Virus record (IMG/VR): IMGVR_UViG_3300015171_000001
Location: 32,001 to 96,000 of that record
Length of the DNA stretch: 64,000 nt
Reading direction: 5' to 3' (one strand)
Source of the DNA: a virus
Every line of letters starts with the position of its first letter. The first letter of the stretch is position 1. Shown here piece by piece: positions 9,445 through 54,302 of the stretch. The notes beneath the pieces are model-generated. The model was not told the DNA's origin and did no database searches. It worked only from the letters and a program-made list of their open reading frames with translations. The position numbers were made by a program, and so were the translations under genes.

Positions 9445-9852
9445 ATGAAAATAGAAGAATTAAAAATTATAATCGAGGAATGTGTTAGAAAAGTTATTAA
9501 GGAAGAACTATCAAATAAAGGTATTTTAGCGGAAACAAAAAAATCACCAATTTCTCCTATTAATAAAATTATTCCAAAAGAAAAACTTTTGGGATTGTCG
9601 GGATTGCCTATTAACAAAATAAAATTAAAAACAGGAAATGTTTTATTAGACAACGTATTGGCAGAAACTACTGGAGGAATTCCACAACAAGATGGGTCAT
9701 CTGTGATGCAGATGCTTCCTATGCAATCAATGTTAAATGAATCTAATGAATCTGAAATAAAGGAAAATGCTCCAGAAGTATACAAAGCAATGACAAGAGA
9801 TTACTCATCTATGTTGAAAAAGATGGAACAAATAAAGCCTTCTAAAAAATAA
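9445..9852 (+). CDS. hypothetical virion protein with LKxIIxEC N-terminal motif
   Basis: MKIEELKIIIEECVRKVIKEEL. Confidence 0.7.
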   Translation: MKIEELKIIIEECVRKVIKEELSNKGILAETKKSPISPINKIIPKEKLLGLSGLPINKIKLKTGNVLLDNVLAETTGGIPQQDGSSVMQMLPMQSMLNESNESEIKENAPEVYKAMTRDYSSMLKKMEQIKPSKK

Positions 9853-9896
9853 ATTGATAACTTGATTGAGATTAGGATATTTTTATATTTATATAG

Positions 9897-10289
9897 ATGC
9901 TGCCTCAAAATCAAATACCAATTGGAATAATTTTTCCTATAAGATTAGGTAATAGTGGATATTTTGAACAATCATTTGATACAATAACTCAAATTACAAC
10001 AAATTTAATTAATTTTTTTTCTACTAAAAAAGGAGAACGTCCATTAAATCCAGAATTTGGGACAGATTTATTTTCTAATTTAATGGAAGAAGATACAGAT
10101 TCTTTAAAAATAATAGCTCAAAATATAATACAATCTGAACTGAGTTTATATTTTTCAACATTACAATTTGTTTCTGCAACTATAAGCAATGTATCTGATT
10201 CAGATAGAAATGTTCAACGCATATCGATTACTGTGCAAGAAACATTGAGTACAGAATTTATAAACATAGAGGTGATTTCAAATATATGA
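9897..10289 (+). CDS. gp25: baseplate wedge/sheath initiator, gp25-like
   Basis: NL..FFSTKKGERPLNPEFG motif. Confidence 0.9.
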   Translation: MLPQNQIPIGIIFPIRLGNSGYFEQSFDTITQITTNLINFFSTKKGERPLNPEFGTDLFSNLMEEDTDSLKIIAQNIIQSELSLYFSTLQFVSATISNVSDSDRNVQRISITVQETLSTEFINIEVISNI

Positions 10290-12190
10290 TAACATCCACA
10301 AACAAATCTTTTACGCCAAATTCAAAGAATGTTAGTTATCTTAATAAAGATTTTGATTCTCTGAAAAATGCGTTAATTACATTTGCACAAACATATTATC
10401 CAAATACATATAAGGATTTTAATTCCGCTTCTCCAGGAATGATGTTTATTGAATTGGCGGCGTATGTGGGTGATGTATTGTCATTTTATATTGATTATCA
10501 GTTTAAAGAATCTCTGATGGAATATGCGGAGGAAAGAAAAAATTTAATAACACTTGCTAGATTTTTAGGTTATAAAACAAAAGTCACATCTCCATCCGTT
10601 ACAACATTAGATGTTTTTCAAGTTATACCAGCATTACAAAACGATGATGGAACATACAGTCCAGATTATAAATACGCATTATCCATTCAAGAGGGGATGT
10701 CAGTAAAAGGATCTTCTGGAATATCTTTTAGAACTTTATCATCAATTGATTTTTCTATAAATACAAATACAGATCCTACAGAAATTTCTATATATAATAG
10801 AGATCAATCAGGAAATCCTCAATTATTTTTATTAAAAAAATCTGTTGGGGCAACATCAGGAACGATTGTTACAAGAAATTATAACATTGGAGATTCTCAA
10901 CAATTTTATAGAATCAATTTACCAGAGAATAATATTATAGAAATAACTGGTGTTGTGGATAGCAATAATAATAATTGGTACGAAGTTGATTGTTTGGCAC
11001 AAGAATTAGTTTTTGAAAGTATTCCAAATAATGAAATTTATCAGACCACATTTTCTACATATAAAAACACAGTTCCATATATTATAAGTGCATTAAAAAC
11101 ATCTAATAGATTTATTACTGGTGTGTATGATGACAACACAACATATTTGGAATTTGGTGCTGGAACAAATACATCTGCTGATGAGTTAATAATTCCTAGT
11201 ATAAATACTGTAGGAAAGGGATTGACACAACAAATAAGAGACAATGTTTCTTATGATCCTTCTAATTTTCTAAAAACAAAAACTTATGGTGCTGCTCCAT
11301 CAAATACAACATTAACAATAACATATGTAATTGGAGGTGGTATTGAGTCAAATATTAATACGGGAGACTTAAATTCCGTAACAAATATAACATATCTAAA
11401 TGATATAAATGATTTTTCTTCAAACGAGCAACAATTAGTTAATGTTGTTAGAAATTCGTTATCTATAATAAATTCAAGTCCTGCTGTTGGTGGTGCTGGT
11501 CCAGAAACAACTGATGAAATTAGACAAAATGGACTAGGTAATTTCTTTTCACAAAATAGAATAGTTACAAAAGACGATTATATTATTAGAATTTATGGTA
11601 TGCCTCAAAAATTTGGAGCCATTGCAAAAACATATCTTATTCAAGATCAATCTATTGATATGAATAATGTATTATATAAAGAGAATAATAATCAATTTGC
11701 TATAAATCTATACACTCTTTGTTATGATAATAACAAAAATTTAACACAACCAAATGATGCTGTTCTATATAATTTAAAAAATTATTTGGATAGATATAGA
11801 ATGATAACAGATTCAATAAACATTTACTCAGGATTTATAATTAATATTGGAGTAAAATTTCAAATATTAACTTATAAAAACTATAATAAACAACAAGTTT
11901 TGTCAAATTGCATAGTTGCTGTTCAAAATTTCTTTAATATTGATTTGTGGAATTTCAATGATGTTATAAATTTAAACAGTTTGCAATTGGAAATAGCTAA
12001 AGTAGCTGGTGTTCAAAGCGTTTCTAATTTACAAATATACAACCTAACATCAAATGATGGTGATGGATACTCTTCAAATGCATATGATTTTAATAAAGCT
12101 ACTGTGGATAATATAGTATATCCTTCTTTAGATCCTTGCATTTTTGAATTAAAATATCCCAACACAGACATTATTGGAAGCGCAAATTAA
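10286..12190 (+). CDS. gp6: baseplate wedge protein, gp6/Baseplate J-like
   Basis: DFDSLK..L, MFIELAAYVGDVLSFY, FGAG, GGAGPET.DEIR, QNRIVTKDDY. Confidence 0.9.
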   Translation: MITSTNKSFTPNSKNVSYLNKDFDSLKNALITFAQTYYPNTYKDFNSASPGMMFIELAAYVGDVLSFYIDYQFKESLMEYAEERKNLITLARFLGYKTKVTSPSVTTLDVFQVIPALQNDDGTYSPDYKYALSIQEGMSVKGSSGISFRTLSSIDFSINTNTDPTEISIYNRDQSGNPQLFLLKKSVGATSGTIVTRNYNIGDSQQFYRINLPENNIIEITGVVDSNNNNWYEVDCLAQELVFESIPNNEIYQTTFSTYKNTVPYIISALKTSNRFITGVYDDNTTYLEFGAGTNTSADELIIPSINTVGKGLTQQIRDNVSYDPSNFLKTKTYGAAPSNTTLTITYVIGGGIESNINTGDLNSVTNITYLNDINDFSSNEQQLVNVVRNSLSIINSSPAVGGAGPETTDEIRQNGLGNFFSQNRIVTKDDYIIRIYGMPQKFGAIAKTYLIQDQSIDMNNVLYKENNNQFAINLYTLCYDNNKNLTQPNDAVLYNLKNYLDRYRMITDSINIYSGFIINIGVKFQILTYKNYNKQQVLSNCIVAVQNFFNIDLWNFNDVINLNSLQLEIAKVAGVQSVSNLQIYNLTSNDGDGYSSNAYDFNKATVDNIVYPSLDPCIFELKYPNTDIIGSAN

Positions 12191-12210
12191 TTTGACACAT
12201 ATTTATTTGC

Positions 12211-31200: not shown

Positions 31201-31247
31201 TAAAAAGTGGAATGTAATATATCAATAGTTAATTATATTTATAATAT

Positions 31248-31847
31248 ATGAAAATCAAAATTTCAGAATTAAAATCAATAATACGTGAATGTATTAATGA
31301 GGAAAAACAAGTTTTATACGAAGCAATGACATATGATCAATTAGTACATGCGACTAAATCCAATTGGCCTACTAGATTTGAAAATACAAAAAATGTAATA
31401 ACAGTTCCTCCAAAATTAGTTGTTTTAAAAAGTGGAAATGTTGATTTGCAATTCAATTATAGATCAACAACATCAAAAAGTGGAAATTCTCACTTGGGGC
31501 AAATTATTTTCTTTCCAAATAAAATGAGTGCAATAAATAAATTTGGTAATTGGTGGAAGAAAATAAAAGATCAATTTAATAGATTTATTGGAAAGTCTGT
31601 TCCTCCAAATGTATTAAATAATGATGATTTGAGAAAAATGAATTGTAAATGCACTTGTGATTGCGAAGATTTTTTATATAGAATGGAAGTTGCCAATCAT
31701 AAGAAAGATGCTTCTGATATTAAATATAGCAATGGAAAAGATCCTATAATAAGAAACCCCCAAATGAGACCAGGATTATGTAAACATCTATTGGGAACTT
31801 TAAAATATCTTATAAACAAAAAACCATTAGAATCTGAAATAGATTAA
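31248..31847 (+). CDS. SWIM zinc-finger protein with LKxIIxEC N-terminal motif
   Basis: CTCDCEDF..GLCKHL. Confidence 0.75.
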   Translation: MKIKISELKSIIRECINEEKQVLYEAMTYDQLVHATKSNWPTRFENTKNVITVPPKLVVLKSGNVDLQFNYRSTTSKSGNSHLGQIIFFPNKMSAINKFGNWWKKIKDQFNRFIGKSVPPNVLNNDDLRKMNCKCTCDCEDFLYRMEVANHKKDASDIKYSNGKDPIIRNPQMRPGLCKHLLGTLKYLINKKPLESEID

Positions 31848-33105: not shown

Positions 33106-36100
33106 ATGAGTTCACATGAACAAGCAATTAAAAATAAAATTAAGGAAGAGTATAGACTGTGTGCTCAAGATCCAATTTATTTCATAAAAAAATACGTTAA
33201 AATAGAACATCCTGGAAAAGGTGTTATCCCATTTGAACTTTTCCCATTTCAAGAAGATGTCCTAAATCAATTTAGAGGTCATAATAAAAATATCGTCTTA
33301 AAAGCAAGACAAATGGGTATATCCACAGTTACTGCCGCTTATTGTTTGTGGTTGATGGTTTTCTTTGATAATAAAAAAATTGTTTGTTTGGCTACAAAAC
33401 AAGATACCGCTAAAGAAATTGTTACCCGTTGTAAATTTGGTTATGAACATTTGCCAAGTTGGTTGAGACCACTTGCTATTGAAAATAATAAACTTTCATT
33501 GGAATTAAAAACTGGTGGGAGAATTGCTGCTGAAACTGCTGCTATTGACTCTGCCAGAGGTAAGGCTCTATCTTTATTAATATTAGATGAAGTTGCATCT
33601 ATGAAGGATGCTGATGAAATATGGACTGCTGCGCAGAGTGCAACGACCCATGGTGGAGGCAGAGCAATATTAATTTCTTGTGTTACCAAAGATACATATG
33701 TTTTTACAAACCAAGGAATAAAACAAGTTAATGATTTTATAAAACACAAAAATATTGGAGGATATAATATTGAAAATTATTCAATATTGGGAAAATCTAA
33801 ACAAAGGACCGGAAATTTGTTCAAAAATAATGGAATTTGCGATACTATAAAAATAAAAACAAAATTTTCTGAGTTAGAAGGAAGTTCTGAGCATAAATTA
33901 TGGGCTTATAAAAAATCGGAACTTAAATTTGGGTGGTATAAATTAAAAGATTTGTCTTTAGAGGATTTTGTTTCAATACAATATGGAATGAACATTTGGG
34001 GGGGGAATGATTTATTAGATTATAAAACAACAAACAGAATTTATAATAAAAATAATTATCATTTCGACAAAATTACTCCCGCTTTAGCATATTTTTTTGG
34101 ATTATATATCTCAGAAGGATATATTAGTAAATCTTGCAATAAGGAAGGAAAATCAACAAGTGCTCGTATACACATATCTTGTGGAGATCCAGAAATTAAA
34201 TGGTGTTTTGAAAAATTAAATATAAAATACCACGTTAGAAATAATTTACAATATACTATAAACTCGAAAAATTTATTAGAATTATTTGAATATGTAGGAT
34301 TTGATATATCAAGAAGAGCGCAAAATAAAATAATTCCCAAAAGATTATTAGAAATGAGCAGAGAAAATATGATATATTTGTTACGAGGGATTTTTGATGG
34401 TGATGGAACTGCTTCAAAAGGTAATGTGTCGATTACATCAACATCTTCTATATTAATTGATCAATTACGAATAATTTTAAATAATTTTGGAATATTATCC
34501 TCCAGATATGTCCAAGACATAACTAAAAAAAATTTAGTTAATAAAAAAAATATTAATCCAAGTAATTTGCACATTAAAGGAAATTATGATAGTCATATAT
34601 TAGAAATTTATGGAAAAAATGCTTTGCAATATTTTAATGAAATTGGTTTTTGTCTAACAAGAAAACAGAATAAAAAAGAATTATTATTAGCACATAATTT
34701 AAATAGATCTTCTACTTCCGACATTATTCCAAATTCTGTTAAACTTGTTAAAGAATTAGTGAGAGTTTCTAATAAAACTACCACTTTTATTTATAAAAAT
34801 AACGATATATTTTTAAATTGTATATGCAACAATATAACAAAATATAAAACAAACAATGTATCAAGAGAACTTGTTTTGAAATTATACGACTTATTTGGAA
34901 AAAATTTATCTATAGAAAATAAAATCGAATATGATAAAATATTGTCCAGTAATTTGTGTTGGGTTAAAATAGATAAAATATTATATGATAGAAAAGAAAC
35001 ATATGATTTTTCTTTGCCGGAAAATGATGACGATTTTTGGTGTCACTCAATAATATATAATGGATTTTTAGGACATCAAACTCCAAAAGGTATAGGCAAT
35101 TTTTATCACAAAATGTGGGTAGACGCAGAAAATGGGGAAAATGGTTTTAATGCAATTAGATTACATTGGAGATTGCATCCAGAATATGATCAGACTTGGA
35201 GAGATGAACAAACAAAAACTCTTGGAGAAAAGGCGGCAAATCAGGAGTGCGAAGGAATATTTTTAGGAACTGGACATACTGTTATAGATGAACAATTTTT
35301 AAAACATTATAGAGAAAATGTAGTAAAAGAACCTATTTCCAAAACACAAGTTGGAGAATCTTTATGGACTTGGAAATATGCAAATTATAGTAAACAATAT
35401 TTAGTATCTGCTGACGTGGCAAGAGGAGATGGAAACGATTTTTCGGCAGCACAAATAATAGATTTAGATAATTTGGAACAAGTTGCTGAATTTAAAGGAA
35501 AAATGCCACCAAAAGAATTTGGAGCATTTTGTATAGGATTGGCAAGTCAATATAATAATGCGGTATTGGTAATAGAAAATAATAGCTTCGGCCATACAAC
35601 AATACAAGAATGCATAGACAGAGAATATCCTAATTTATTTTATTCAACAAATGATTTGCAATTTGTGGATGTTGAAAGAAATATATCAAATAAATTAAAT
35701 AGAGATGATAAAAGATTAATTCCAGGACATACTACAACATCTAAAAATAGAGTTCCAATGATTTCTAAATTGGAAATGGCAATGAGAGAAAAATCAATCA
35801 TAATAAATTCTCAGAGAACTATAGATGAATTGACTACTTTTATTTGGAATAATGGAAAACCAGAAGCTATGCGCTCTTATAATGACGACTTAATCATGTC
35901 ATTGTGTATAGCACTATGGATTAGAGACACAGCGATAAGACTTAAAGTAGAAAAAATTTCCCTTCAAAAAGAATTATTATTACATATGGGGAAAACTAAA
36001 CTTAATAACGAAAGACCTAGACAAGATAATTATAGTACCGCAGATAAAACTACTTCGGGAACACAAATATATAGTATCGGCGTTATGAATAAAAAAGAAA

Positions 36101-36159
36101 ATCCATATATCTATAAAATGGGAAATGGACATACAGAAGATTTTAAGTGGTTATTATAA
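33106..36159 (+). CDS. terL: terminase large subunit (gp17-like) with one intein
   Basis: KARQMGIST Walker A, LLILDEVA Walker B, IS|TPKG motif split by the intein, ADVARG, NDDLIMS. Confidence 0.95.
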   Translation: MSSHEQAIKNKIKEEYRLCAQDPIYFIKKYVKIEHPGKGVIPFELFPFQEDVLNQFRGHNKNIVLKARQMGISTVTAAYCLWLMVFFDNKKIVCLATKQDTAKEIVTRCKFGYEHLPSWLRPLAIENNKLSLELKTGGRIAAETAAIDSARGKALSLLILDEVASMKDADEIWTAAQSATTHGGGRAILISCVTKDTYVFTNQGIKQVNDFIKHKNIGGYNIENYSILGKSKQRTGNLFKNNGICDTIKIKTKFSELEGSSEHKLWAYKKSELKFGWYKLKDLSLEDFVSIQYGMNIWGGNDLLDYKTTNRIYNKNNYHFDKITPALAYFFGLYISEGYISKSCNKEGKSTSARIHISCGDPEIKWCFEKLNIKYHVRNNLQYTINSKNLLELFEYVGFDISRRAQNKIIPKRLLEMSRENMIYLLRGIFDGDGTASKGNVSITSTSSILIDQLRIILNNFGILSSRYVQDITKKNLVNKKNINPSNLHIKGNYDSHILEIYGKNALQYFNEIGFCLTRKQNKKELLLAHNLNRSSTSDIIPNSVKLVKELVRVSNKTTTFIYKNNDIFLNCICNNITKYKTNNVSRELVLKLYDLFGKNLSIENKIEYDKILSSNLCWVKIDKILYDRKETYDFSLPENDDDFWCHSIIYNGFLGHQTPKGIGNFYHKMWVDAENGENGFNAIRLHWRLHPEYDQTWRDEQTKTLGEKAANQECEGIFLGTGHTVIDEQFLKHYRENVVKEPISKTQVGESLWTWKYANYSKQYLVSADVARGDGNDFSAAQIIDLDNLEQVAEFKGKMPPKEFGAFCIGLASQYNNAVLVIENNSFGHTTIQECIDREYPNLFYSTNDLQFVDVERNISNKLNRDDKRLIPGHTTTSKNRVPMISKLEMAMREKSIIINSQRTIDELTTFIWNNGKPEAMRSYNDDLIMSLCIALWIRDTAIRLKVEKISLQKELLLHMGKTKLNNERPRQDNYSTADKTTSGTQIYSIGVMNKKENPYIYKMGNGHTEDFKWLL
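33679..35079 (+). mobile_element. intein (467 aa, LAGLIDADG) in terminase
   Basis: Starts CVTKDT, contains GLYISEG and LRGIFDGDG, ends GHQ|T. Confidence 0.92.
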
Positions 36160-36194: not shown

Positions 36195-36584
36195 ATGTCT
36201 ATTTTTCAATTAAAAAAACTAATTAATGAACAACTTTCCCTCTTATCTGAGGACTTTGATCCAAATACCTACGCAGCTAATGAAAAATCTGCATCAGATC
36301 AAAAAACACAAAGAGCATCAGATATAAATAAAAAATTGGCAACTGAAAAAGATCCTCTAAATAAATTAAAATTACAAAAGGCTTACGCTCTTGCGATGAG
36401 TGATAAGTCAGAAGCAGATTCTAAATTTAATAAAAAATTGTCAGAAGGTTATAAAAAATCAGCATCAGATACAGATAATCAAATAAAAATGTATAATATC
36501 AAATTGCAACAACAAAAAAATAATCCCCAAAATAATAGCCCCGATAATCAACCAAATCAAAATAATAACAATCCAAATTCATAA
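36195..36584 (+). CDS. hypothetical protein, Q/N-rich tail (start revised to 36195)
   Basis: ATG 36195 MSIFQLKKLINEQL avoids overlap with terL. Confidence 0.65.
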   Translation: MSIFQLKKLINEQLSLLSEDFDPNTYAANEKSASDQKTQRASDINKKLATEKDPLNKLKLQKAYALAMSDKSEADSKFNKKLSEGYKKSASDTDNQIKMYNIKLQQQKNNPQNNSPDNQPNQNNNNPNS

Positions 36585-36587
36585 GTT

Positions 36588-39500
36588 ATGGCAGAAAAAT
36601 CAATATTCGCAGCACTTAAAAAAATATTCTCAAATGATGTCATCGTTCGTAATGTCGGTGGTAAAAAATTAAAAATAGTAGATCCTTCTAATGTTCAATA
36701 TGCTCCAGATGCTAATTCATTAAAAGATCGTTTTAATAGATTAAGATCTTCTAATTACGGAATATATTCTAGAGATATGATCATGTCATATCAATCAGCT
36801 AGAATTGAACTTTTTCGTGATTATGATTGTGTTTCTGGAGATACAATTATTCCTCTTCCTGATGGAACTAAACCAACTATAAAGGAACTGGCGGAGAAAT
36901 ATAAATATTTGCCACAAGAAAAATTTTATGTGTATTCATATGATCACGAAACAGATTCTATTAAATTAGGAAATGCTTTTCATCCCAGATCTAAAGGAAT
37001 TAAGCCAACATTCAAAGTAATATTAGATAATGATGAACATATTATTGGAACAGAAGATCATTTATTTCTTTGTAAAAATGGAGAATATAAAAAATTAAAA
37101 GAGTTAACAACAGGAGAATCTTTAATGCCATTTTATCAAAAAGATTTTTATGATAAAGGATATAGACATTTATACAATTTTTCTAAAGGATGGCAACCAG
37201 AACATAATGTTGTAGCAGAACAATTTTATAATAGACCCGTTTCAGAAAATGAAGTTGTACATCACAAAAATTTTAAACCATTTTGTAATTTTCCAGAAAA
37301 TTTGCAAATAATGGATAAAAAAGCTCATAGACAATTTCACATGGATCTAAATAATAAAAAAATATGGAGCCCAGAAAATTATGAAAAGCAATGCGAAATT
37401 ATAAGAGAAGCTGTTAAAAAAAGACCCATTTATTCTTGGAATGGAAAAAGAAAAGGAGAAAATAATCCCTTTTTTGGCAAAAAACATTCCGAAAATAGTA
37501 ATTTGATTAGATCTAAAAAATTAAAAGAATTTTCAAAAACCAGAAATTATACTTCAGAAAAAAATCCAAATTTTAATTCTAATATAACATTTGATTTAAT
37601 AAAAAACTTTTGTATTGATTTTTATAAAAATAACGGGGAATTTATAACAAGAAAAGAAATTAGAAAAGAATTGTCTTGCGATGAATCTATCATAACAAAT
37701 AGATTGAAAAATAACAATTATGATTGGAACAAATTTAAAAAAGAAATAATTTATACATTAAATCACAAAGTAAAATCAATTGAATATTATGGAGAAATTG
37801 AAGTATTTGATATTTCTGTTGAAAAGTATAACAACTTCGCTACCAACAACTTATTCTTACATAATTGTATGGACCTCGATCCAATCTTGGCGGCGGCACT
37901 AGATATATTTTCGGACGAAAGTCTAACAGAAAATGAATTTGGAAAAATTCTTTCTATTAAATCAGATGATGAGAATATTAAAGATATTCTTCATAATTTA
38001 TTTTATGATATTTTAAATATTGAATTTAATTTGTGGAGTTGGGTTAGAAATATGGTTAAGATGGGAGATTTTTTCTTAAAACTTGATATATCGAGTGAAT
38101 ATGGTGTCTTCATGGTTCACCCATTAAGTTCATATGAAGTTAGCCGAATAGAAACTATTGATGATAACGGAAATATCGTTTATAAGTTTAGACATGATGG
38201 TTCTAGAGGTCAGGGTGAGTTGGAAAATTATGAAGTGGCACATTTTAGATTACTTTCTGACACAAATTTTTTGCCTTATGGACGATCTATGTTAGAGGGC
38301 GCAAGAAGAACATGGAAACAACTTTGTTTACATTCTAATTCAAACATATGGACATCCAATGGATATAAAAAGATAAAAGACATAGAAATTGGAGATATTG
38401 TTTATTCATATGATTATAAAACATGCAAAACAATTCCAACTAAAGTCAAAAATTGTTTAAAAACAGGAAACAAAAAAACATACAAATTAAAAACAAGAAC
38501 TAGAGAATTAATATTAACAGGAGAACATCCGGTTTTAGTTAAGGATGTAGAAAATAATTATTCTTATAAAAAAGCAAAAGAATTAACAAAAAAAGACTAT
38601 ATTATTATTCCTACTATTGAAGATAATTTTGAGGAAAATAAAAAAATATTAATAAATAATACAAATTATTGTGTTAAATTAAATGATTTGGGAATAAATT
38701 ATGTTAAAAATACTATAAATTCCGTAGGAATTATTAAAAGAATTAAAGATTTAAATGTAAACCACAACTTTAAACAAATCCATGCATTTTTACAAGGAGA
38801 TAAAACATTACCTATAATTATTTTTAATAAAATAAAAGAAGAATTTAAAATAAATTATTCTCATATAAATTATCATATTGTTGGAAGTAAAAGAAATAGT
38901 ATATTAAATAAAGATTTTAATTTCGTCTTAACTAAAGAATTTGTTAGATTTTTTGGATTTATGTTAGGAGATGGTTGGACAAAAAATAATAATGTTTCAT
39001 TTGCAAGAGGAATTTATGATAATAAAAATGATTTTTATACAAATATATTAAAAAACTATTGTGAATCGGTCACAGTAAAAATCGGAACAAAGACAAGACC
39101 AAATTATCCAGGAAGTGTTAATGGATATTCAAAAGAATTATCTCATATATTTAATGAACTAGGATTCAAAACTGGATTTCAAAATAAAGAAATTCCTAAT
39201 TGGGTTTGGAATTTAAGCAAAGAACACAAAAAAGAATTTATAAAAGGGTTATTTGATGCCGATGGTTCTTGGAAGTGGGGTATTATTGGATTATCAAATG
39301 AAAAATTAATAACTCAATATAAAATATTATGTCAACAAACAGGCATAATGTGTAATGAAGTTAAATTGTGTGGCAATCGATCCGAACCAAAAACAGACAA
39401 ATTTGGGGTGACTAGGCAACCAACTTATAAATTATATGTTAATTTTAATAATGAATTTAATTTAGATTTTCAAAAAGTTTGTAGTGTGGATGAGTTTGAA

Positions 39501-40808
39501 GAAAATTCGGAAGTGTGGGATTTGGAAGTGGATAATGAATTACATAATTTCATAGCAAATGGAATTGTTGTACATAATTGTTTATTAGAAGATGCTATGT
39601 TAATTCATAGAATCATGAGAGCACCTGAAAAAAGAATTTTCAAAATAGATATTGGCAATATTCCGGCTTCAGAAATTGATGGATTTATGGAAAAAATTGT
39701 TAATCAAATGAAAAAGGTTCCATATATGGACCCAAATACAGGTGATTATAATTTAAAATTCAATATTAATAACATGATCGAGGATTTCTTTTTGCCAGTT
39801 CGTGGTGGGGATAGTGGAACGTCTATTGACACACTTCCTGGTATGGAATTTACTGGAATTGAAGATGTAGAATATGTGAAAAATAAAATGATGGCTGCTC
39901 TTAAAATTCCAAAAACATTTTTGGGTTATGGAGAAGCTGTGGGTGGGAAGTCAACACTTGCTCAAGAAGATATTCGCTTTGCTAGAACAATTACCAGAAT
40001 TCAAAAAATAATTGTTTCTGAACTAACAAAAATCGCCATATTACATTTATATGTACAAGGATATAGGGACGCATCATTGGTTAATTTTGAATTATCATTA
40101 AGTAATCCGTCTACCATATTTGAGCAAGAAAAAATTGCTATTTGGTCTGATAAGATTTCTTTAGCTAAAGACATGATGGAATCTCAACTTATTTCCAAGA
40201 ATTGGATTTACAAATACATATTTGAACTTTCTGATGATGTTATTGAAGAAATGAAAGAAGATATTGTTAAAGATTCCCAAGAAGTTTTTAGATATAAGAA
40301 AATAGCTGAAGATGGTGAAGATCCTGCAAAAGACTTTACAAAACTTGGAAAAGAAAATAATGATGATGGGGATACTTCGGGAGGTGCCTCTACTGAACCA
40401 CCAAGTGACTTAGGTGGAGGAGAAGGATCAAATCAAGGTGAAGAGCCACCAACTCCAAACGAACCTACCACATCTAATTCTACGCCTCCTCCGCCTCCCT
40501 CCAATCCAGCAGGAGGAACGGGTGCGCCATTACAAGAAGAAAAAGATCCTAGGAATGGATTTCGATTAAGCAAAGACACTACTAGAAAGAATCATTCTGG
40601 TTTGGGAGAAGATCCATTAGGAAAATTACAAAAAGTTAGAGATACTAAACTAAAAAAGGATCAATCTAAGAATAGATATAAGAATAAATCTCCATTAGCC
40701 CTTGAGACATTAACCAACAGAAAAGTACTTAAATATAATACTATCTTAAAAGAAAAGATGAAAAGATTATCATTATTAGATGAAAATAACATTTTATCTA
40801 ACGATTAA
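36588..40808 (+). CDS. gp20: portal protein (gp20-like) with two inteins
   Basis: LEDAMLIHRIMRAPEKRIFKIDIGN, EDFFLPVRGG..IDTLPG, EDIRFARTI; 642 aa after splicing. Confidence 0.95.
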   Translation: MAEKSIFAALKKIFSNDVIVRNVGGKKLKIVDPSNVQYAPDANSLKDRFNRLRSSNYGIYSRDMIMSYQSARIELFRDYDCVSGDTIIPLPDGTKPTIKELAEKYKYLPQEKFYVYSYDHETDSIKLGNAFHPRSKGIKPTFKVILDNDEHIIGTEDHLFLCKNGEYKKLKELTTGESLMPFYQKDFYDKGYRHLYNFSKGWQPEHNVVAEQFYNRPVSENEVVHHKNFKPFCNFPENLQIMDKKAHRQFHMDLNNKKIWSPENYEKQCEIIREAVKKRPIYSWNGKRKGENNPFFGKKHSENSNLIRSKKLKEFSKTRNYTSEKNPNFNSNITFDLIKNFCIDFYKNNGEFITRKEIRKELSCDESIITNRLKNNNYDWNKFKKEIIYTLNHKVKSIEYYGEIEVFDISVEKYNNFATNNLFLHNCMDLDPILAAALDIFSDESLTENEFGKILSIKSDDENIKDILHNLFYDILNIEFNLWSWVRNMVKMGDFFLKLDISSEYGVFMVHPLSSYEVSRIETIDDNGNIVYKFRHDGSRGQGELENYEVAHFRLLSDTNFLPYGRSMLEGARRTWKQLCLHSNSNIWTSNGYKKIKDIEIGDIVYSYDYKTCKTIPTKVKNCLKTGNKKTYKLKTRTRELILTGEHPVLVKDVENNYSYKKAKELTKKDYIIIPTIEDNFEENKKILINNTNYCVKLNDLGINYVKNTINSVGIIKRIKDLNVNHNFKQIHAFLQGDKTLPIIIFNKIKEEFKINYSHINYHIVGSKRNSILNKDFNFVLTKEFVRFFGFMLGDGWTKNNNVSFARGIYDNKNDFYTNILKNYCESVTVKIGTKTRPNYPGSVNGYSKELSHIFNELGFKTGFQNKEIPNWVWNLSKEHKKEFIKGLFDADGSWKWGIIGLSNEKLITQYKILCQQTGIMCNEVKLCGNRSEPKTDKFGVTRQPTYKLYVNFNNEFNLDFQKVCSVDEFEENSEVWDLEVDNELHNFIANGIVVHNCLLEDAMLIHRIMRAPEKRIFKIDIGNIPASEIDGFMEKIVNQMKKVPYMDPNTGDYNLKFNINNMIEDFFLPVRGGDSGTSIDTLPGMEFTGIEDVEYVKNKMMAALKIPKTFLGYGEAVGGKSTLAQEDIRFARTITRIQKIIVSELTKIAILHLYVQGYRDASLVNFELSLSNPSTIFEQEKIAIWSDKISLAKDMMESQLISKNWIYKYIFELSDDVIEEMKEDIVKDSQEVFRYKKIAEDGEDPAKDFTKLGKENNDDGDTSGGASTEPPSDLGGGEGSNQGEEPPTPNEPTTSNSTPPPPPSNPAGGTGAPLQEEKDPRNGFRLSKDTTRKNHSGLGEDPLGKLQKVRDTKLKKDQSKNRYKNKSPLALETLTNRKVLKYNTILKEKMKRLSLLDENNILSND
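36828..37865 (+). mobile_element. intein 1 in portal (346 aa, HNH + NUMOD3)
   Basis: CVSGDT..LHN|C; VVHHKNF..N.PENL..H..H; GENNPFFGKKHS. Confidence 0.9.
38325..39578 (+). mobile_element. intein 2 in portal (418 aa, LAGLIDADG)
   Basis: CLHSNS..VHN|C; GFMLGDG and FIKGLFDADG. Confidence 0.92.
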
Positions 40809-42592: not shown

Positions 42593-42604
42593 TATTTATA
42601 ATTT

Positions 42605-44284
42605 ATGTCTAAATCATTATTAATCGAAGTCAGAGATTCAAAATTTACTTCTAAAAAAGAAGGAGATAAATTCTTTGTAGAGGGTATTCTTACTCATAAA
42701 GATGAAAAAAGAAATCAAAATGGACGAATTTATCCCGAAGAAACTCTTTTCAGAGAAGTTGAAAAATACAAGAATAATGTTATTAAAGAGAATAGAGCTA
42801 TGGGTGAACTAGACCATCCGGATTGTGTCGCAAGTGGTTCATTAATAATGACTTATGAAGGATGGAAGCCTCTAGAAAATATCAAAAATGATGAAATTAT
42901 TGCTACATTAAATATTGAAACTAATAAAATTGAATATCAAAAAATCACAGAAAAAATAGATCAAGAATATAAAGGAACGATGTATCGTGTAAAAGGAAGA
43001 AATATTAATATTTTAGTTACTCCAAATCACAGATTTGTTGTTAGAGATAGAAAAGGAAAATTGGGGTTTGATTGTGCTGAGAATCTTTATAATAGATTGC
43101 AAAATAATGAATATCCCCATTTATCAATTCCATCAAATTCATTTGGGTGGGACAAAGAGTCTCCAGAAAAATTTTTATTAAAAAGAGCCGAGAATGTTAG
43201 AAATGATTTAAGAGACAAATATAGTGAAGATATAGAAATAGATTTTTCTGTATGGATGGGATTTATTGGAATTTATTTAGCAGAAGGATATTTTAAAGGA
43301 TGTAGAAGAAGACAAGAATCTGTTAAAAAATCTGGATATTCTATTACTATTTCTCAAAATGAGGGAATTAAAAAAGATAAAATTAGAGAATTATTAAATA
43401 AATTTCCCGAAGAATTAAAGTGGAAAGAAGTAAAATGTGGATTTACCATCACAGATGCTAGATTACACAATTATGTTTCCAAATTAGGATCTTGTTATGA
43501 CAAATATATTCCACAAGAATTAAAAGAACAATCCATACCTTTATTAGAAGAATTATTAGAATTTTATTTTATTGGAGATGGAAGAGCACCAATTTATAAA
43601 GGACGTTCTTCTAAGGATGTATTTTCAACTTCTAAAAAATTAATAGAAGATTTACACGAAATTCTAACAAAAACCGGATGTTCTGGAAGTATTGCTGTGG
43701 AATATCCAAAAAAAGATTATAAATTTGCTGGGAGAATTATAAAAGCAAAAAATAAATCTCCATTATGGTTGTTGACTTTTAAAACAACTGGAGCAATTCA
43801 TATAGATCCAAGATTTTTAAAAATTGAAAAGGTTGATTATGATGGAAGAGTTTATTGTGTTAAAGTTCCAAATCAAACTTTTTATGCAATGAATGAAGGA
43901 AAATGTTTTTGGAGCGGCAATTCATCTGTAATTAATTTAAAAAATGTATCTCATAATATTGTTAGTTGTTGGTGGGAAGGTGATAGTTTAATTGGAAAAT
44001 TAGAAATTTTAGGAACTCCTTGTGGAAATATTGCAAAGGCTTTATTTGAGGCAGGTATTCCTGTAGGAATTTCTTCCAGAGCACTTGGAAGTGTTAAGAC
44101 TATCGGAGAAAATACTGTGGAGGTACAAGATGATTTAGAGCTTCTAGCATTTGATTTGGTCAGCACTCCATCTGCCAATGGAGCATATTTACAACCTCTC
44201 CACGAAGCAAAAGGAAACATAATAATTTTAGATAACAACGACAGAATAAATGAAATTATCAGAGAAATTTTAACAACAATATAA
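42605..44284 (+). CDS. gp21: prohead protease (gp21-like) with one intein
   Basis: NQNGRIYP, GELDHPD|SSVINLKNVSH, GISSRALGS, FDLVSTPS; 193 aa after splicing. Confidence 0.95.
   Translation: MSKSLLIEVRDSKFTSKKEGDKFFVEGILTHKDEKRNQNGRIYPEETLFREVEKYKNNVIKENRAMGELDHPDCVASGSLIMTYEGWKPLENIKNDEIIATLNIETNKIEYQKITEKIDQEYKGTMYRVKGRNINILVTPNHRFVVRDRKGKLGFDCAENLYNRLQNNEYPHLSIPSNSFGWDKESPEKFLLKRAENVRNDLRDKYSEDIEIDFSVWMGFIGIYLAEGYFKGCRRRQESVKKSGYSITISQNEGIKKDKIRELLNKFPEELKWKEVKCGFTITDARLHNYVSKLGSCYDKYIPQELKEQSIPLLEELLEFYFIGDGRAPIYKGRSSKDVFSTSKKLIEDLHEILTKTGCSGSIAVEYPKKDYKFAGRIIKAKNKSPLWLLTFKTTGAIHIDPRFLKIEKVDYDGRVYCVKVPNQTFYAMNEGKCFWSGNSSVINLKNVSHNIVSCWWEGDSLIGKLEILGTPCGNIAKALFEAGIPVGISSRALGSVKTIGENTVEVQDDLELLAFDLVSTPSANGAYLQPLHEAKGNIIILDNNDRINEIIREILTTI
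42824..43921 (+). mobile_element. intein (366 aa, LAGLIDADG) in prohead protease
   Basis: CVASGS..TPNH..GIYLAEG..IGDG..WSGN|S. Confidence 0.92.
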
Positions 44285-46780: not shown

Positions 46781-47992
46781 ATGAGTAAATCAAATTTATT
46801 AGCAGAAGCAATGGCCGACATCAAAGCATTGAGAGCCGTTGCATATGCTAATGCAAAAAGCGTTCTTGAAGAAGCATTCACACCAAAAGTGACTGAGATG
46901 CTTACAAAGAAATTAAAAGAAGAAGCAGAAATGGAAGAAGATGATAAAGATAAAAATCTCGATGAATCTTCTGACCAAGATGATGCTGATTACAAGAAAA
47001 AATCAAAGGGTCATTCCACAAAGAAAGAATTTTCTGATTCAGTTAAGACTGTTTCGGTTAATGAAACTTCCGATCAAGATGATGCTGATTATAAAAAGAA
47101 ATCAAAAGGACATTCTACTAAAAAAGAATTTTCTGATGGTGTAAAAACTGTAGTTGTTGAAAATGAAGAAGAAATTGCTTCAGATGATACAGAAACTCTT
47201 GATGACAAATCAGAAGTATCAACTGACGAAAATGAAGAAGGTTTACACAAAGATGTCAATGCTGAAATTGACGAAATTTTAAGAGAATTCGAAGGTTCAA
47301 CTGAAGAGGAATCTTCCGAAGAAGCTCCTGATGCTCTTGCTCAAGCCCCATCTGCTGAAAAGACTGATGTTTCTGCTCCTTCCGACGAAGAAGTTGAAAT
47401 TGATGTTACTCCAGAAGAAGGCGAATCCGAACACGTTGCTGAAGTGCCTGCTGAGGGTGATGGTGATAATGATGAGGAAAAACATAGTGAAGTTAATATC
47501 GACGAAATTCTTGCTGAGTTGGAAAATGAAAAAGAATATGCTCATCACAGAGGAATCGATGGTTCCGAAGAGAATTTGGAAGAACTTAATTCACTTAAGA
47601 CCGAAAATAAAAAACTAAAAACTGCTCTTTTAGAAATGAAAAAGCAAGTAAATGAAGTTAATTTACTAAACAGTAGATTGTTATATGTTGGGAAATTATT
47701 TAAGGAAAATTCCTTGAATATTAAACAAAAAGAACAAATCGTTGAAGCATTTGATTCTGCAAATACTTTGAAGGAGATTACATTGACCTTCAAACTTCTT
47801 TCAGAAACTTTCAAAGGTCATGTTCCTAAATCACCAACAATTAAAAGTTCAAAACAAACTATTGTCGAAGGTTTAGCTTCTAAAGTTATTACATCAACAA
47901 AACCAAATTTGATTACAGAATCTAAAGCTAATGCTGAAGATGTCTCACTTTCTCAACGTTTGCAAAAACTTGCGGGAATTAAAATCAAATAA
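46781..47992 (+). CDS. prohead scaffold/core protein (gp22-like)
   Basis: Highly acidic coiled coil immediately upstream of the major capsid gene; ends RLQKLAGIK. Confidence 0.8.
   Translation: MSKSNLLAEAMADIKALRAVAYANAKSVLEEAFTPKVTEMLTKKLKEEAEMEEDDKDKNLDESSDQDDADYKKKSKGHSTKKEFSDSVKTVSVNETSDQDDADYKKKSKGHSTKKEFSDGVKTVVVENEEEIASDDTETLDDKSEVSTDENEEGLHKDVNAEIDEILREFEGSTEEESSEEAPDALAQAPSAEKTDVSAPSDEEVEIDVTPEEGESEHVAEVPAEGDGDNDEEKHSEVNIDEILAELENEKEYAHHRGIDGSEENLEELNSLKTENKKLKTALLEMKKQVNEVNLLNSRLLYVGKLFKENSLNIKQKEQIVEAFDSANTLKEITLTFKLLSETFKGHVPKSPTIKSSKQTIVEGLASKVITSTKPNLITESKANAEDVSLSQRLQKLAGIKIK
46964..47161 (+). repeat. 99 bp (33 aa) tandem duplication in scaffold
   Basis: SDQDDADYKKKSKGHSTKKEFSDxVKTV twice, 99 nt apart. 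Confidence 0.9.
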
Positions 47993-48019: not shown

Positions 48020-49645
48020 ATGAGTATTAAGTCCTTATTAACAAACTCTAATTCTGCTCAAGATCGCTTGACTACAGAAACAAGAGCGTTACAATCAAAA
48101 TGGGCAAAGACTGGATTATTAGAAGGTTTATCAGAAATTGATAGATCTAATATGTCCGTGATCCTTGAAAATCAAGCTAAACAATTATTAGACGAAGCAA
48201 CCAGAACTGGTACTTCTGCAAATTCTGAACAATGGGCTGGCGTTGCTCTTCCATTAGTAAGACGTTTGTTCTCAGAAATCGCTTCTAAAGAATTCGTTTC
48301 AGTACAACCAATGAACCTTCCTTCGGGATTGGTATTCTATTTGGATTTCAAATATGGTACAAATCAAGCTGGTAATCCTGCTTTCTTGGGACAAAGCTTA
48401 TTCGGTGGAACAGGTATTAAACTTGGATCTACAGATTCAGCAGTAAATGGTCTTTATGGAACAGCACGTTATGGTTATTCAATGAATGATTATGTGAGTG
48501 CATCATTGTCATTAACAAGTGGTTCAGTATCATTTGATGATGTCGATTATAACTCTGCTTATAGTGCTTCAGCCATTGCTGGTCAATTAAGTAAAGTAAC
48601 TGTTGCTATCGGTGGAGACGCTGATCTTAATGGTGTTAGAGCATTTACTGTGTCTGGATCTGGTTTCTCAACCTATCTTCCACAATTCACAAAGGCTTCT
48701 AACGGTTTCGTAACATTCATTGTGTCAGGTTCTCCTTCCACAACCGCTACTGTTACTTATCAAGTTCAACCTGCTGACTTGTCAAGAGGTGACTTCGAAG
48801 ATAAAGCAACTGCTGCTGGTCCTGTTGGAAACAACTCTGGTGTTTATGCTGATATCGGCATTCCTGAAATTAACTTAGAAGTTAAGAGTGAAGCAATTGT
48901 TGCTAGGACACGTAAATTAAAAGCTGTTTGGACACCTGAACTTGCTCAAGATTTAAATGCTTATCACAGTATTGATGCTGAAGCTGAATTAACTGCTCTT
49001 CTTTCTGAGTATGTTGCTATGGAAGTTGACTTGGAAATTATTGACATGTTAGTTACTGCTGCTCCTGGACAAAACACAGAAGCTTGGAGTGCTATTATTG
49101 GTAATGAAATCATAAAGCAAGGCTACAATACAGATGGTAGTGCTACTTTCCAATATCAAGCTAACACAGCCACAAATCGTACTGCTTATGTAAAGTCCAC
49201 TTGGTATCAAACACTTGGTAACAAGATTCAAAAGGTATCTAACAATATTCACAAATTGACATTAAGAGGTGGTGCTAACTTCATCGTTTGTTCACCAGAT
49301 GTTGCTACTATTATCGAAAGTATTCCTGGATTCGTTCCTGATACTGATGGTGATAAGAGTAAATTTGCTATGGGCGTTGCTAAAGTTGGTGGTCTTTCAA
49401 ATCGTTGGACTATCTACAAGAATCCTTACATGACCGAGAACACCATGTTACTAGGATTCAGAGGAAACAACTTCTTTGAGTGTGGTGCTGTTTATAGCCC
49501 ATATATTCCATTGATTCAAACTCCATTAGTGTATGATCCTGTGAACTTTACACCTCGTAGAGGCGTGATGACTCGTTATGCAAAAAAGATGCTTAGACCG
49601 GAGTTCTTCGGCAAAATCTATGTAGGAGATTTAAATTATATCTAA
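48020..49645 (+). CDS. gp23: major capsid protein (gp23-like)
   Basis: VSVQPMNLPSGLVFYL, RTRKLKAVWTPELAQDLNAYHSIDAEAEL, YSPYIPL, PRRGVMTRYA. Confidence 0.97.
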   Translation: MSIKSLLTNSNSAQDRLTTETRALQSKWAKTGLLEGLSEIDRSNMSVILENQAKQLLDEATRTGTSANSEQWAGVALPLVRRLFSEIASKEFVSVQPMNLPSGLVFYLDFKYGTNQAGNPAFLGQSLFGGTGIKLGSTDSAVNGLYGTARYGYSMNDYVSASLSLTSGSVSFDDVDYNSAYSASAIAGQLSKVTVAIGGDADLNGVRAFTVSGSGFSTYLPQFTKASNGFVTFIVSGSPSTTATVTYQVQPADLSRGDFEDKATAAGPVGNNSGVYADIGIPEINLEVKSEAIVARTRKLKAVWTPELAQDLNAYHSIDAEAELTALLSEYVAMEVDLEIIDMLVTAAPGQNTEAWSAIIGNEIIKQGYNTDGSATFQYQANTATNRTAYVKSTWYQTLGNKIQKVSNNIHKLTLRGGANFIVCSPDVATIIESIPGFVPDTDGDKSKFAMGVAKVGGLSNRWTIYKNPYMTENTMLLGFRGNNFFECGAVYSPYIPLIQTPLVYDPVNFTPRRGVMTRYAKKMLRPEFFGKIYVGDLNYI

Positions 49646-49738: not shown

Positions 49739-49767
49739 TTGACAAATTTTTTATATATTGATATAAT
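49739..49767 (+). promoter_or_regulatory. consensus sigma70 promoter
   Basis: TTGACA, 17 nt, TG-n-TATAAT; ATG at 49773. Confidence 0.85.
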
Positions 49768-49772
49768 AATAT

Positions 49773-51773: not shown

Positions 51774-52058
51774 TGCATTTAATTTAACAATTCCTTCTTC
51801 ATCAACATACTCCAAAACCTTTCCACTAGTAGAATTATAAATATTCAATAACACGACAGATTCCCTAGATTTTTTAGAATGTATTCCTTTATTAGATTCT
51901 GGGATATATATTTTCCTATGACAATTTGGGCATAACCAGATTCTATTCCAATCATCATTTTGTCCTTTTAACTCTCTAGGAACAATATGATGATAATCAA
52001 TTTTAGTTCTATCGTTGGTCGTGTAAGAACATTTAGGAAATTGACATTTATAACGCAT
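51765..52058 (-). CDS. small HNH endonuclease
   Basis: CQFPKC..HHIVPR..N..LCPNCH. Confidence 0.85.
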   Translation of the reverse strand: MRYKCQFPKCSYTTNDRTKIDYHHIVPRELKGQNDDWNRIWLCPNCHRKIYIPESNKGIHSKKSRESVVLLNIYNSTSGKVLEYVDEEGIVKLNALI

Positions 52059-52078
52059 TTGATTATATATATTAAATT

Positions 52079-52816: not shown

Positions 52817-53076
52817 ATATAAAGAGAAATATAGATTCTTTAGAGTTCTTTTGTAAGACAATTAAATGGCTTAGAGAAAACTACGAAAATTCTATAGAAG
52901 AAGCAGATTGCAAAAACATATGGTTATATTCAAATAGATTAGAGAATGAGTTAATATTTTCCCAAGAAATTTGTATGAATATAATCAATGATTTCTTTTT
53001 TGATAAACTCCCGGCGGATTTTCAAGAAGAAATATGGGAGTTTCATGTAGAAATATACAATGAATTAGATTACTAG
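52813..53076 (+). CDS. hypothetical acidic protein
   Basis: 87 aa, start overlaps the upstream stop. Confidence 0.6.
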   Translation: MNIKRNIDSLEFFCKTIKWLRENYENSIEEADCKNIWLYSNRLENELIFSQEICMNIINDFFFDKLPADFQEEIWEFHVEIYNELDY

Positions 53077-53093
53077 TTCATATTTATTTTATT

Positions 53094-53381
53094 ATGGATA
53101 AAAAAGTATTAAATGAAAGAATGTTAGGTTTGGCAGGAGTAGTCCCTATGAGTTCTATGGGATTTCTTAGAACCCGTGATTTACCATCTTGTGATTTAAC
53201 TGGAATTTATAAAAAAGAAACACTTTATGAAGTAACAAAGGTTGGTCAAAAAGTAATTTCTCCTATTGGGAAATTATATGAAGTTGCTAATATTTTTGAA
53301 GGATTTATATCTTTAGAAACAAATACTTACGAAAAATTACATCAACAAAATCCATTACCTAAAGGTTGGAAATTAGAATAA
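53094..53381 (+). CDS. hypothetical protein with scaffold-like RMxxLAG motif
   Basis: LNERMLGLAGV; preceded by TATTTATT. Confidence 0.65.
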   Translation: MDKKVLNERMLGLAGVVPMSSMGFLRTRDLPSCDLTGIYKKETLYEVTKVGQKVISPIGKLYEVANIFEGFISLETNTYEKLHQQNPLPKGWKLE

Positions 53382-53385
53382 AATT

Positions 53386-53967
53386 ATGAAAAAAGAAGAC
53401 TTAAAAAAACAAATTAAATCAATTATAAAAGAGCATTTTTCCATTGGAGGAGGTGTTATTTGTTTAAAACCAATTGGAACAGGAGGAAATCCATTTCCAA
53501 CAAGTAGATTGCCTGTATTAAAAAGAGATTTTGCAACTACAGAATTTTTGAAAAGTGGTCTTACTAAAGATTCGGTATGTGAATCAAACATTAAAAATGT
53601 AAAATTATTAGAAGCTATTTCAAAGATTGCAAAAACAGTTTCCAAGAAAGAATTAGTTAAAGAAGATATTGAAGAGATTGCATATAAAATTATCAAGTCT
53701 TATAAGAATGAAAATTATGCCAGTATTATTTCCGAATTAAAAAGAGAAATAGTTAAAAATGGATATAAAATTCTTAATGAAGGAAATCCGAAATCAGAAA
53801 AATTAATTAAAGAGGATGTTCTTCCTACAAATTCAACTACAGATATTAAAAATGTGAAAGACATTTTTTCGGCAGTTAAAAACAATCCAACAGAATGGTT
53901 AGATAATCAATCACAGGATATTAAAGATTCATTTGAAAGACTATATAATGTAAGTATTTCGCAATAA
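53386..53967 (+). CDS. hypothetical protein with IKxIIKE N-terminal motif
   Basis: MKKEDLKKQIKSIIKE. Confidence 0.7.
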   Translation: MKKEDLKKQIKSIIKEHFSIGGGVICLKPIGTGGNPFPTSRLPVLKRDFATTEFLKSGLTKDSVCESNIKNVKLLEAISKIAKTVSKKELVKEDIEEIAYKIIKSYKNENYASIISELKREIVKNGYKILNEGNPKSEKLIKEDVLPTNSTTDIKNVKDIFSAVKNNPTEWLDNQSQDIKDSFERLYNVSISQ

Positions 53968-53972
53968 TAGAT

Positions 53973-54302
53973 ATGTTAAAATCAGAACTTATTACTTTAA
54001 TTAAAGAATGTATTTCTGAATCATATAATTTAAATTCATATGGAACACAGGTTATTGAGAATTCTGATATTGATAAAAAATTAAAAAAATTGGGATTTAA
54101 ATGGCATGAAGGAAGTCATGAATATATTTTGGATGTAAATAAGAATTTGAGATATACCTTTGAATTTTTTCAAGAAGAAACCAGTGCTTATAGAATTTCC
54201 CGCTTAACAAAAAATTCAGATTATAAGTATAATGTTCTAGTTCCTGACTCCGAAAGTTTTGAGAATTATGACGATGCTTTAAATTGGATGTCAAAGAAAT
54301 AA
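53973..54302 (+). CDS. hypothetical protein with LxxLIxEC N-terminal motif
   Basis: MLKSELITLIKECISE. Confidence 0.7.
   Translation: MLKSELITLIKECISESYNLNSYGTQVIENSDIDKKLKKLGFKWHEGSHEYILDVNKNLRYTFEFFQEETSAYRISRLTKNSDYKYNVLVPDSESFENYDDALNWMSKK

Follow-up and report, generated by a model that had tools for sequence, protein, structure and literature searches.

The virus record IMGVR_UViG_3300015171_000001 of IMG/VR comprises 157,280 bp with a G+C content of 27%, and its bases 32001-96000, a 64 kb stretch referred to here as the window, carry a virion module with terminase, portal, protease, scaffold-like, capsid, sheath and baseplate wedge genes. By its sequence the phage belongs, as a distant relative, to the T4 superfamily. 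Among sequenced phages, Flavobacterium phage immuto and Microcystis phage Mel-JY01 come closest (about 52% capsid identity), followed at a greater distance by Rhodothermus phage RM378 and then by thousands of T4-like phages, and at least 596 IMG/VR contigs carry a related capsid gene. The subject of this analysis is a short N-terminal peptide, here called the tag, with the consensus M-(3-6 residues)-L-K-x-[LI]-I-x-E-C-[LIV]-x-E, which opens six otherwise dissimilar proteins in a strict form and about 12 others in a loose form. Coordinates are window positions unless marked as genome (whole record), genes are named by their first nucleotide, and the features are collected in Table 1.

A first-pass annotation of the window had placed strict tags at 9445, 31248, 31849, 45549, 45954 and 53973 and looser versions at 36195, 41718, 42191, 44286 and 53386, and these N-termini are all present; 6402, an open reading frame (ORF) with a variant tag, adds to that list. 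The called proteome has seven instances of the pattern [LIV][LIV]xEC, six of which lie at residues 9-11, and a six-frame scan of the whole genome for L-x-x-[LIV]-[LIV]-x-E-C returns exactly six occurrences, all on the plus strand. Each of the six lies 5-7 codons past an ATG, with a stop at most 14 codons before that ATG and at least 104 open codons beyond the motif, while triplet-shuffled genomes give 0-3 matches that are randomly placed. With a position-specific scoring matrix (PSSM) built from the six strict tags, seven of the ten next-best matches proved to be N-terminal (N-terminal positions account for 4%), including 6402, 36195 and 53386 in the window and genome 107901, 110214 and 118674 outside it. 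The loosely tagged gene at genome 143854 was found by regular expression and stands lower in the PSSM ranking. At the core of the tag is a quartet of the form Phi-Phi-x-Glu (PhiPhi-x-E, where Phi is a hydrophobic residue), and 28 such quartets end at residues 6-16 of proteins of this phage against 7.8 expected from the internal rate (3.6-fold, P = 2e-8). The same test gives a 2.4-fold excess in immuto and a 2.3-fold excess in T4, the positive control, where it recovers IPII, IPIII, gp68, gp21, gp22, gp24 and Alt and so detects a known system. The N-terminal signal here is no weaker than that of T4, but not every phage with an S77 protease shows it.

Five of the six strict carriers hold two quartets in a row, [LI]-I-x-E and then C-[LIV]-x-E, so that a cut could fall after either Glu; 9445 deviates in the second element, which reads C-V-R-K and then V-I-K-E. 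The Cys after the Glu is invariant in the six strict tags and in a family of proteins of about 140 residues from other phages, and its position lies on the hydrophobic face of the predicted helix. A Sec or lipoprotein signal peptide or lipobox was ruled out by inspection, as the tags are charged and amphipathic, with Lys or Glu every 3-4 residues and no hydrophobic stretch. Tag-like sequence is also found inside two proteins encoded outside the window (genome 117992-119948), at residue 127 of a 217-residue protein and at residue 283 of a 424-residue protein that is tagged N-terminally as well, and these internal copies are possible cut sites between domains.

Table 1. Tagged genes and neighbouring virion genes in the window (aa, amino acids; nt, nucleotides; a slash marks the cut position)
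Feature	Position	Strand	N-terminus	Remarks
ORF with variant tag, 49 aa	6402..6551	+	MTKKTIKELINIIEYC	best PSSM match after the six strict tags; no Glu directly before the Cys
Strict-tag protein, 135 aa	9445..9852	+	MKIEELKIIIEEC	just upstream of gp25-like and gp6-like baseplate wedge genes
Baseplate wedge genes, gp25-like and gp6-like	9897, 10286
Strict-tag protein, 199 aa	31248..31847	+	MKIKISELKSIIREC	Cys-rich C-terminal part; ATATTTATA motif 4 nt before ATG
Strict-tag protein, 201 aa	31849..32454	+	MKLSKLKTLIKEC	GTKWC motif; shares operon with 31248
Large terminase	33106-36159			with intein
Loose-tag protein, 129 aa	36195..36584	+	MSIFQLKKLINE	between terminase and portal genes; PSSM match
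Portal, gp20 type (Portal_T4)	36588-40808			with intein and HNH insertions
Head-core protein, 157 aa	41718..42191	+	MKKYSLKHLLE	position of T4 gp67/gp68; matching ORFs in related loci
Head-core protein, 133 aa	42191..42592	+	MSGINLHSIVKE	orthologues open MVKLKTLLEA or MFKLKALLEA
Prohead protease, T4 gp21 family (Peptidase_S77)	42605..44284	+	MSKSLLIE	ends ..INEIIREILTTI; PF03420, Intein_splicing
Head-core protein, 416 aa	44286..45536	+	MNENLRKILSE	orthologues in related loci
Strict-tag protein, 127 aa	45549..45932	+	MEITKSQLKSLILEC	between protease and scaffold genes
Strict-tag protein, 198 aa	45954..46550	+	MKLTKTQLKNLIAEC	between protease and scaffold genes
Acidic scaffold-like protein, 403 aa	46781..47992	+	MSKSNLLAE/A	no Cys; C-terminal ..RLQKLAGIKIK conserved
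Major capsid protein, Gp23 family	48020..49645	+		PF07068 from residue 70
ORF, 95 aa	53094..53381	+	..NERMLGLAGV..	N-terminus like the scaffold C-terminal end
Loose-tag protein, 193 aa	53386..53967	+	MKKEDLKKQIKSIIKE	PSSM match
Strict-tag protein, 109 aa	53973..54302	+	MLKSELITLIKEC	just upstream of a 433-aa gene with a weak head-tail adaptor match
Tail sheath	59931-62906

The head-core operon brings the tag together with the machinery of head maturation. From 41718 to the scaffold gene, six of seven consecutive genes open with a quartet, namely IVKE, LLIE (protease), ILSE, LILE-C, LIAE-C and LLAE/A (scaffold), and 41718 itself opens with HLLE, which fits L-x-E and not the four-residue quartet. 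Among 80 related loci, each spanning 10 kb either side of the capsid gene, matching ORFs number 24 for 41718, two for 42191 and 45 for 44286, and the orthologues of the last comprise 137-287 residues, open with MIKLKDILKE and align to its residues 129-275. The density of L/I-x-E is three times that of the proteome in the scaffold and five times in 41718, as would be expected of proteins that are chopped up in maturation. The protease matches PF03420 with 77 bits and carries an intein at residues 74-439 (nt 42824-43921); the intein-free extein aligns with T4 gp21 through the motifs GELxHP and SSRxLGS, which read GELDHP and GISSRALGS here, and it keeps the catalytic His and Ser motifs. As the intein lies directly after the catalytic-His motif GELDHPD, protease activity would depend on splicing. 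The helix that ends the protease (..INEIIREILTTI) and the scaffold segments IDEILRE and IDEILAE, which had been likened to the tag in the first reading of the window, are present, and PhiPhi-x-E occurs at the C-terminus of 31 of 45 protease orthologues.

The capsid protein carries the site QLLDE/ATRTG, which aligns exactly with the site FLTE/AEIGG of T4 gp23, a protein cut after residue 65 (PMC9026906), and its propeptide is predicted to be cut after Glu59 (codon 48194-48196). All of 75 distinct capsid sequences from the clade have this Glu; P3 is L, V or I, P4 is L or I and P1' is Ala in 61, with the consensus Q-[LI]-[LVI]-x-E/[AS]. The quartet of the tag is the same quartet as that of the capsid site.

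The extreme C-terminus of the scaffold bears a motif of another kind, ..R-[FWM]-x-x-L-A-G-[IL].., which lies here at 47950-47989 and of which LAG[IVL] is found in 53 of 75 matching ORFs. It recurs at the N-terminus of a few small proteins (NERMLGLAGV, RMQKLAGIITE, NERVLQLAGI), with such N-termini at 53094-53381, at immuto 25061 and 111675 and at L165:4201-5058. This mimicry may represent a second class of capsid address that copies the scaffold's presumed coat-binding end.

Beyond the tag the strict carriers are dissimilar. With residues 1-25 removed, no pair among the six is found by BLASTP at E<1, so that they are not full-length paralogues. As the copies of the tag are only 67% identical in pairwise nucleotide comparison and the DNA upstream of them is dissimilar, the carriers are not recent duplications. 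Neither immuto nor the 80 capsid-linked loci hold an orthologue of any strict carrier, the sole exception being a weak match to the C-terminal part of 31248 in L009, and neither Pfam nor PHROGs assigns a function to any of the six. The picture of a tag on diverse, unrelated proteins holds up, in that the carriers vary between relatives while conserved core genes keep tag-like N-termini. The domain labels given earlier fare unevenly: the GTKWC motif is present in 31849, the SWIM finger of 31248 amounts to a sub-threshold Pfam match (E 0.015), and the SH3-like label of 45954 could not be confirmed, as its single-sequence AlphaFold model is unusable at a predicted local distance difference test score (pLDDT) of 35. 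A match to phrog_18980 is confined to residues 133-184 of 31248, and 31849 matches phrog_17056 on residues 80-182 and gives a weak PcfJ-like lead, with phage clusters as its only matches in Atlas. A word-indexed homologue search returned only the query for 31849 and for a tagged paralogue at genome 110214, and tblastn of 45954 and 9445 against 50,697 phage records gave no match. Within 45954 the sequence PTWKDGN[YF].GM is duplicated, as PTWKDGNYQGM after the tag and as PTWKDGNFKGM after a second L-L-E at about residue 114, which suggests two modules, each behind a cut site.

The carriers also differ in the number of PhiPhi-x-E sites that follow the tag. Four further sites are found in 9445, and the other five strict carriers (31248, 31849, 45549, 45954 and 53973) together hold one against 3.7 expected, with none in 45549. 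By position, 9445 has a counterpart in immuto, 81525 (MKLDLLKKLIKEAV). As a conserved gene beside baseplate genes and with several internal cut motifs, 9445 is more likely to be an assembly protein than an effector.

The tagged carriers lie on the same strand and in the same operons as head genes. Of all 8-mers within 40 bases upstream of start codons, the highest enrichment, 15-fold, is that of ATATTTAT(A), which lies only 3-11 bases from the ATG and resembles the TATAAATA of T4; its sites in the window include 9886-9894, 31236-31244, 42593-42601, 53081-53089 and 55630-55638, among others. It heads the baseplate, fibre, portal-proximal, protease and neck operons, and likewise those at 31248 and at genome 106619 (tagged paralogues), 117564 and 143854. 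The motif is a candidate late promoter, and its distribution is consistent with a single late regulon for virion and tagged genes. With so short a distance to the ATG, late mRNAs would be leaderless or nearly so.

Related N-termini are found in other phages. Openings such as MIKLKDILKE, MKLEQLRQLVQE and MKASELRNIIRE are five times commoner at the N-termini of the 80 capsid-linked loci than the same pattern is internally, and on one contig MIKLKxLLxE opens each of four neighbouring genes. When IMG/VR was scanned at the DNA level for the pattern of the Cys-bearing tag, 45 matches were obtained, of which 15 are N-terminal by a script filter and about 19 when ORFs with non-ATG starts are included. 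Most of these copies belong to the family of about 140 residues, which opens with ..LKPLIKECIKEVIFEEG.. and has a long N-terminal helix with three or four tandem PhiPhi-x-E quartets. On at least eight contigs of T4-like phages its gene either follows that of the S77 protease immediately or stands one gene away from it, and the scaffold and capsid genes lie downstream. L165, which with a 77% identical sheath is the closest relative found, bears the tag on a 266-residue protein that has no counterpart here. Given the copies beside the protease gene and the carrier in L165, the Cys-bearing tag is, on sequence comparison, old, tied to the head-core module and borne by different accessory proteins in each lineage. 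A hidden Markov model of the 140-residue family matches immuto 81525 weakly (E 6e-4, over the N-terminal 45 residues) and does not match 9445, and 9445 is therefore not called an orthologue of that family. A 158-residue gene with a loose tag (genome 143854-144330) has its positional counterpart at L135:9592-10248, on a contig syntenic with the nucleotide-metabolism region, and there the tag is of the strict Cys-bearing type (MNKEDLKRLIREC), so that tagged genes are not confined to the virion module.

Outside the window, at genome 107901-110987 (L005:7901-10987), four tandem, loosely tagged paralogues of about 255 residues open with MKLKxILxE. A profile of the four collects 2966 clusters among 1.84 billion representatives, with N-termini that are mostly M-[RK]-[LF]-x-x-[YF]-[LI]-x-E-[GS]-R. 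An AlphaFold model made with 90 sequences reaches a pLDDT of 91.7, with only 60 for the first ten residues. In a structural search with VIA-align, 21 of the 30 top rows are proteins of the ADP-ribosyltransferase (ART) fold, all with Z below 8, and the top matches include Arr (Z 6.3), diphtheria toxin (4.9), KptA, tankyrase, DarT, PARP16, CteC and cholix toxin. R35 is nearly invariant in the family and G36 and E223 are invariant. Pfam gives no match for the paralogues, a profile search of PDB sequences yields only helical-bundle noise, and the family was not found in T4, immuto, Mel-JY01, RM378 or the fetched loci. Fused forms exist, with two copies in a 570-residue protein and about five in a 2645-residue protein, and a hydrophobic-x-Glu precedes most, but not all, of these copies. 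On the predicted fold the four paralogues are likely ADP-ribosyltransferase-like, and if that fold holds they would be the counterpart of T4 Alt, an ADP-ribosyltransferase that the phage packs into its head, trims with gp21 and injects (PMC9026906). Like Alt, which opens with MELITE, they carry a hydrophobic-x-Glu opening, on a predicted ART-like fold; unlike it, they have no sequence similarity to Alt and a weak fold match, the best Z of 6.3 being to Arr.

The tag is most probably a T4-type capsid targeting sequence (CTS) and propeptide signal in a new sequence guise, a reading to which we give a probability of about 65%. The loading of proteins into the capsid through an N-terminal peptide that is then clipped is established in T-even phages (PMC3012670, PMC9026906). 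By analogy, the tag would fold into a short amphipathic helix at the N-terminus and assemble together with the prohead scaffolding core. As the head matures, the gp21-type S77 protease would cut the tag off behind its first or its second Glu, and the remainder of the protein would stay within the head with the DNA. The conserved carriers (41718, 42191, the protease, 44286, the scaffold and probably 9445) are rich in cut sites and would probably be degraded. The lineage-specific accessory carriers (31248, 31849, 45549, 45954, 53973 and the ART-like paralogues) are candidates for cargo delivered to the host with the DNA, given that they have almost no further cut sites and parallel the T4 internal proteins and Alt. 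Packaging, cleavage and injection of tagged proteins are thus what we infer from the T4 analogy. Of the portable capsid-loading address proposed in the first-pass annotation, the link to the T4 system is borne out by the gp21-family protease, the aligned capsid cut and the head-core openings, and the inclusion of 9445 among the effectors is not.

The likeness to T4 extends to several components. Both systems place a short N-terminal peptide (10-20 residues) that ends in hydrophobic-I-x-Glu on unrelated, fast-evolving small proteins, and both combine a gp21-family protease, a gp23-family capsid protein, an acidic scaffold and head-core genes with related N-termini. In T4, the pattern MKTYQEFIAE matches the record twice, at the starts of the genes for internal proteins of 100 and 193 residues, and gp21 (MNEPQLLIE), gp22 (MLKEQLIAE/A), gp24 (MAKINELLRE/S) and Alt as well as gp68 open with hydrophobic-x-Glu. 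The tag differs from the T4 CTS in reading ..LKxLIxEC[LIV]xE, with two adjacent quartets and an invariant Cys, in placing the Glu at residues 11-14 and not at 10, and in having more carriers. The phiKZ-type giants phiKZ, 201phi2-1 and SPN3US, in which propeptides of ejection proteins are cut after [AGS]-x-Glu by a gp21-related protease (PMC5694885, PMC7411985), have in common with this system the head protease superfamily, cutting at Glu, N-terminal propeptides on many internal or ejected proteins and a protease that is auto-processed at its C-terminus. Their propeptides differ in being mostly longer than 100 residues, in having no one shared short tag and in a P3 residue that is small and not hydrophobic.

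Several observations weigh against the reading of the tag as a capsid targeting sequence. The tag and MKTYQEFIAE have in common only the M-K start and the hydrophobic-I-x-E end, a stretch too short for statistics, and beyond that end there is no significant similarity. The T4 model has no need of an invariant Cys, and a Cys after the Glu is found in none of the N-terminal tags of immuto and of the 80 capsid-linked loci. The cut quartet is short and common, at 0.48 per 100 residues, and the more remote relatives Mel-JY01 and RM378 have S77 proteases and show no overall N-terminal excess of PhiPhi-x-E. The strict carrier 9445 lies among baseplate genes and the tagged gene at genome 143854 among nucleotide-metabolism genes. 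For the ART-like model Foldseek finds nothing in the PDB, and its Z scores do not exceed 6.3. The counts of tags are lower bounds, as the record is about 67% complete by the CheckV estimate.

Among the alternatives, it is unlikely that the tag directs its carriers to the prohead core but that all of these are assembly or scaffold factors which are degraded and expelled, with no effectors delivered. This would agree with the most conserved carrier of the Cys-bearing tag being the 140-residue head-module protein with tandem quartets beside the protease gene, with the four additional sites in 9445 and with the location of 45549 and 45954 within the head-core operon. It does not agree with the scarcity of further sites in five of the six strict carriers (0-1 against the combined expectation of 3.7), which, unlike assembly factors, are not conserved between relatives, or with the existence of tagged paralogues that have an enzyme-like (ART-like) predicted fold. 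It is improbable, too, that the N-terminus is shared by common descent, or as a recombination cassette for swapping gene bodies, and has no sorting function. The two CTS copies of T4 are identical even in DNA, so that homology at the 5' end does accompany gene shuffling, and the tags here, at the nucleotide identity given above, use the same codon at 73 of 99 identical residues. Such codon sharing is, however, expected anyway at 27% G+C, the upstream flanks differ, and many distant contigs keep the motif, as protein sequence, on proteins unrelated to one another. The motif coincides both with that of the protease and with the head module.

The invariant Cys, which lacks an explanation in the T4 model, could instead make the tag a recognition or modification handle for a phage radical-SAM/SPASM enzyme and not a capsid address, and the genome does encode three radical-SAM proteins with SPASM domains. 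Their genes, however, occupy genome 11.7-20.9 kb, at a distance of 20-65 kb from the tagged genes, the neighbour of the Cys-bearing tag in other contigs is the S77 protease gene and not a radical-SAM gene, Cys-free versions of the tag are common in relatives, and the tag of phage RB43 (MKIRSGFVSNSSSSSFI) is unrelated to the Cys-bearing one, which leaves this explanation highly improbable. An origin by chance or composition, in which A/T-rich codons after the start give look-alike N-termini rich in Lys, Ile and Leu, draws on the 27% G+C of a genome in which many N-termini begin MKK or MKL. It is refuted by the proteome count, the PSSM ranking and the six-frame scan, in which six of six genome-wide matches are N-terminal against 0-3 random ones in shuffles; the Glu-Cys pair is moreover invariant, and the identical type of tag recurs in other phages.

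The T4 proteins carried in the head and injected are the first strike of that phage, in which IPI blocks a restriction enzyme and Alt reprograms the host RNA polymerase. To our knowledge, almost nothing is known of head cargo outside the T-even and phiKZ-like phages, and the literature yielded no paper on such tags outside T-even, P1 and phiKZ-like phages. Should the tag act as its T4 equivalent does, sequence would suffice to identify the cargo of a widespread T4-like group, the mostly metagenomic kin of the Flavobacterium and Microcystis phages. This would point to candidate anti-defence or host-takeover proteins and add a second, independent peptide with which foreign proteins could be targeted to phage heads. 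The concept of capsid targeting dates from 1996 and is itself unchanged, and the value of the present case would lie in its breadth and in testable predictions. A wider reading, which we put forward only tentatively, is that a large and for the most part uncultured branch of the T4 superfamily uses a readable packaging code to which the tag belongs and whose anchor is the conserved core protein encoded beside the protease gene; equally tentative is its set of variants, namely the Cys-bearing double quartet, the MIKLKxLLxE form and the mimic of the scaffold C-terminus (..R-x-x-x-LAG-I). Under such a code, the injected arsenal of thousands of environmental phages would be predictable from sequence, including the ART-like family (about 3000 clusters) with its polyprotein forms, and the invariant Cys would signal a tethering chemistry of its own or a sub-address in the head.

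Two further features of the genome are recorded here. Three essential head genes, those for the terminase, the portal and the protease, are each interrupted by an intein or by homing-endonuclease insertions. In the three radical-SAM proteins the SPASM domain is N-terminal to the radical-SAM core, an unusual permuted order, and their genes (genome 11757-13891 and 19499-20902, outside the window) lie inside a glycosyltransferase island.

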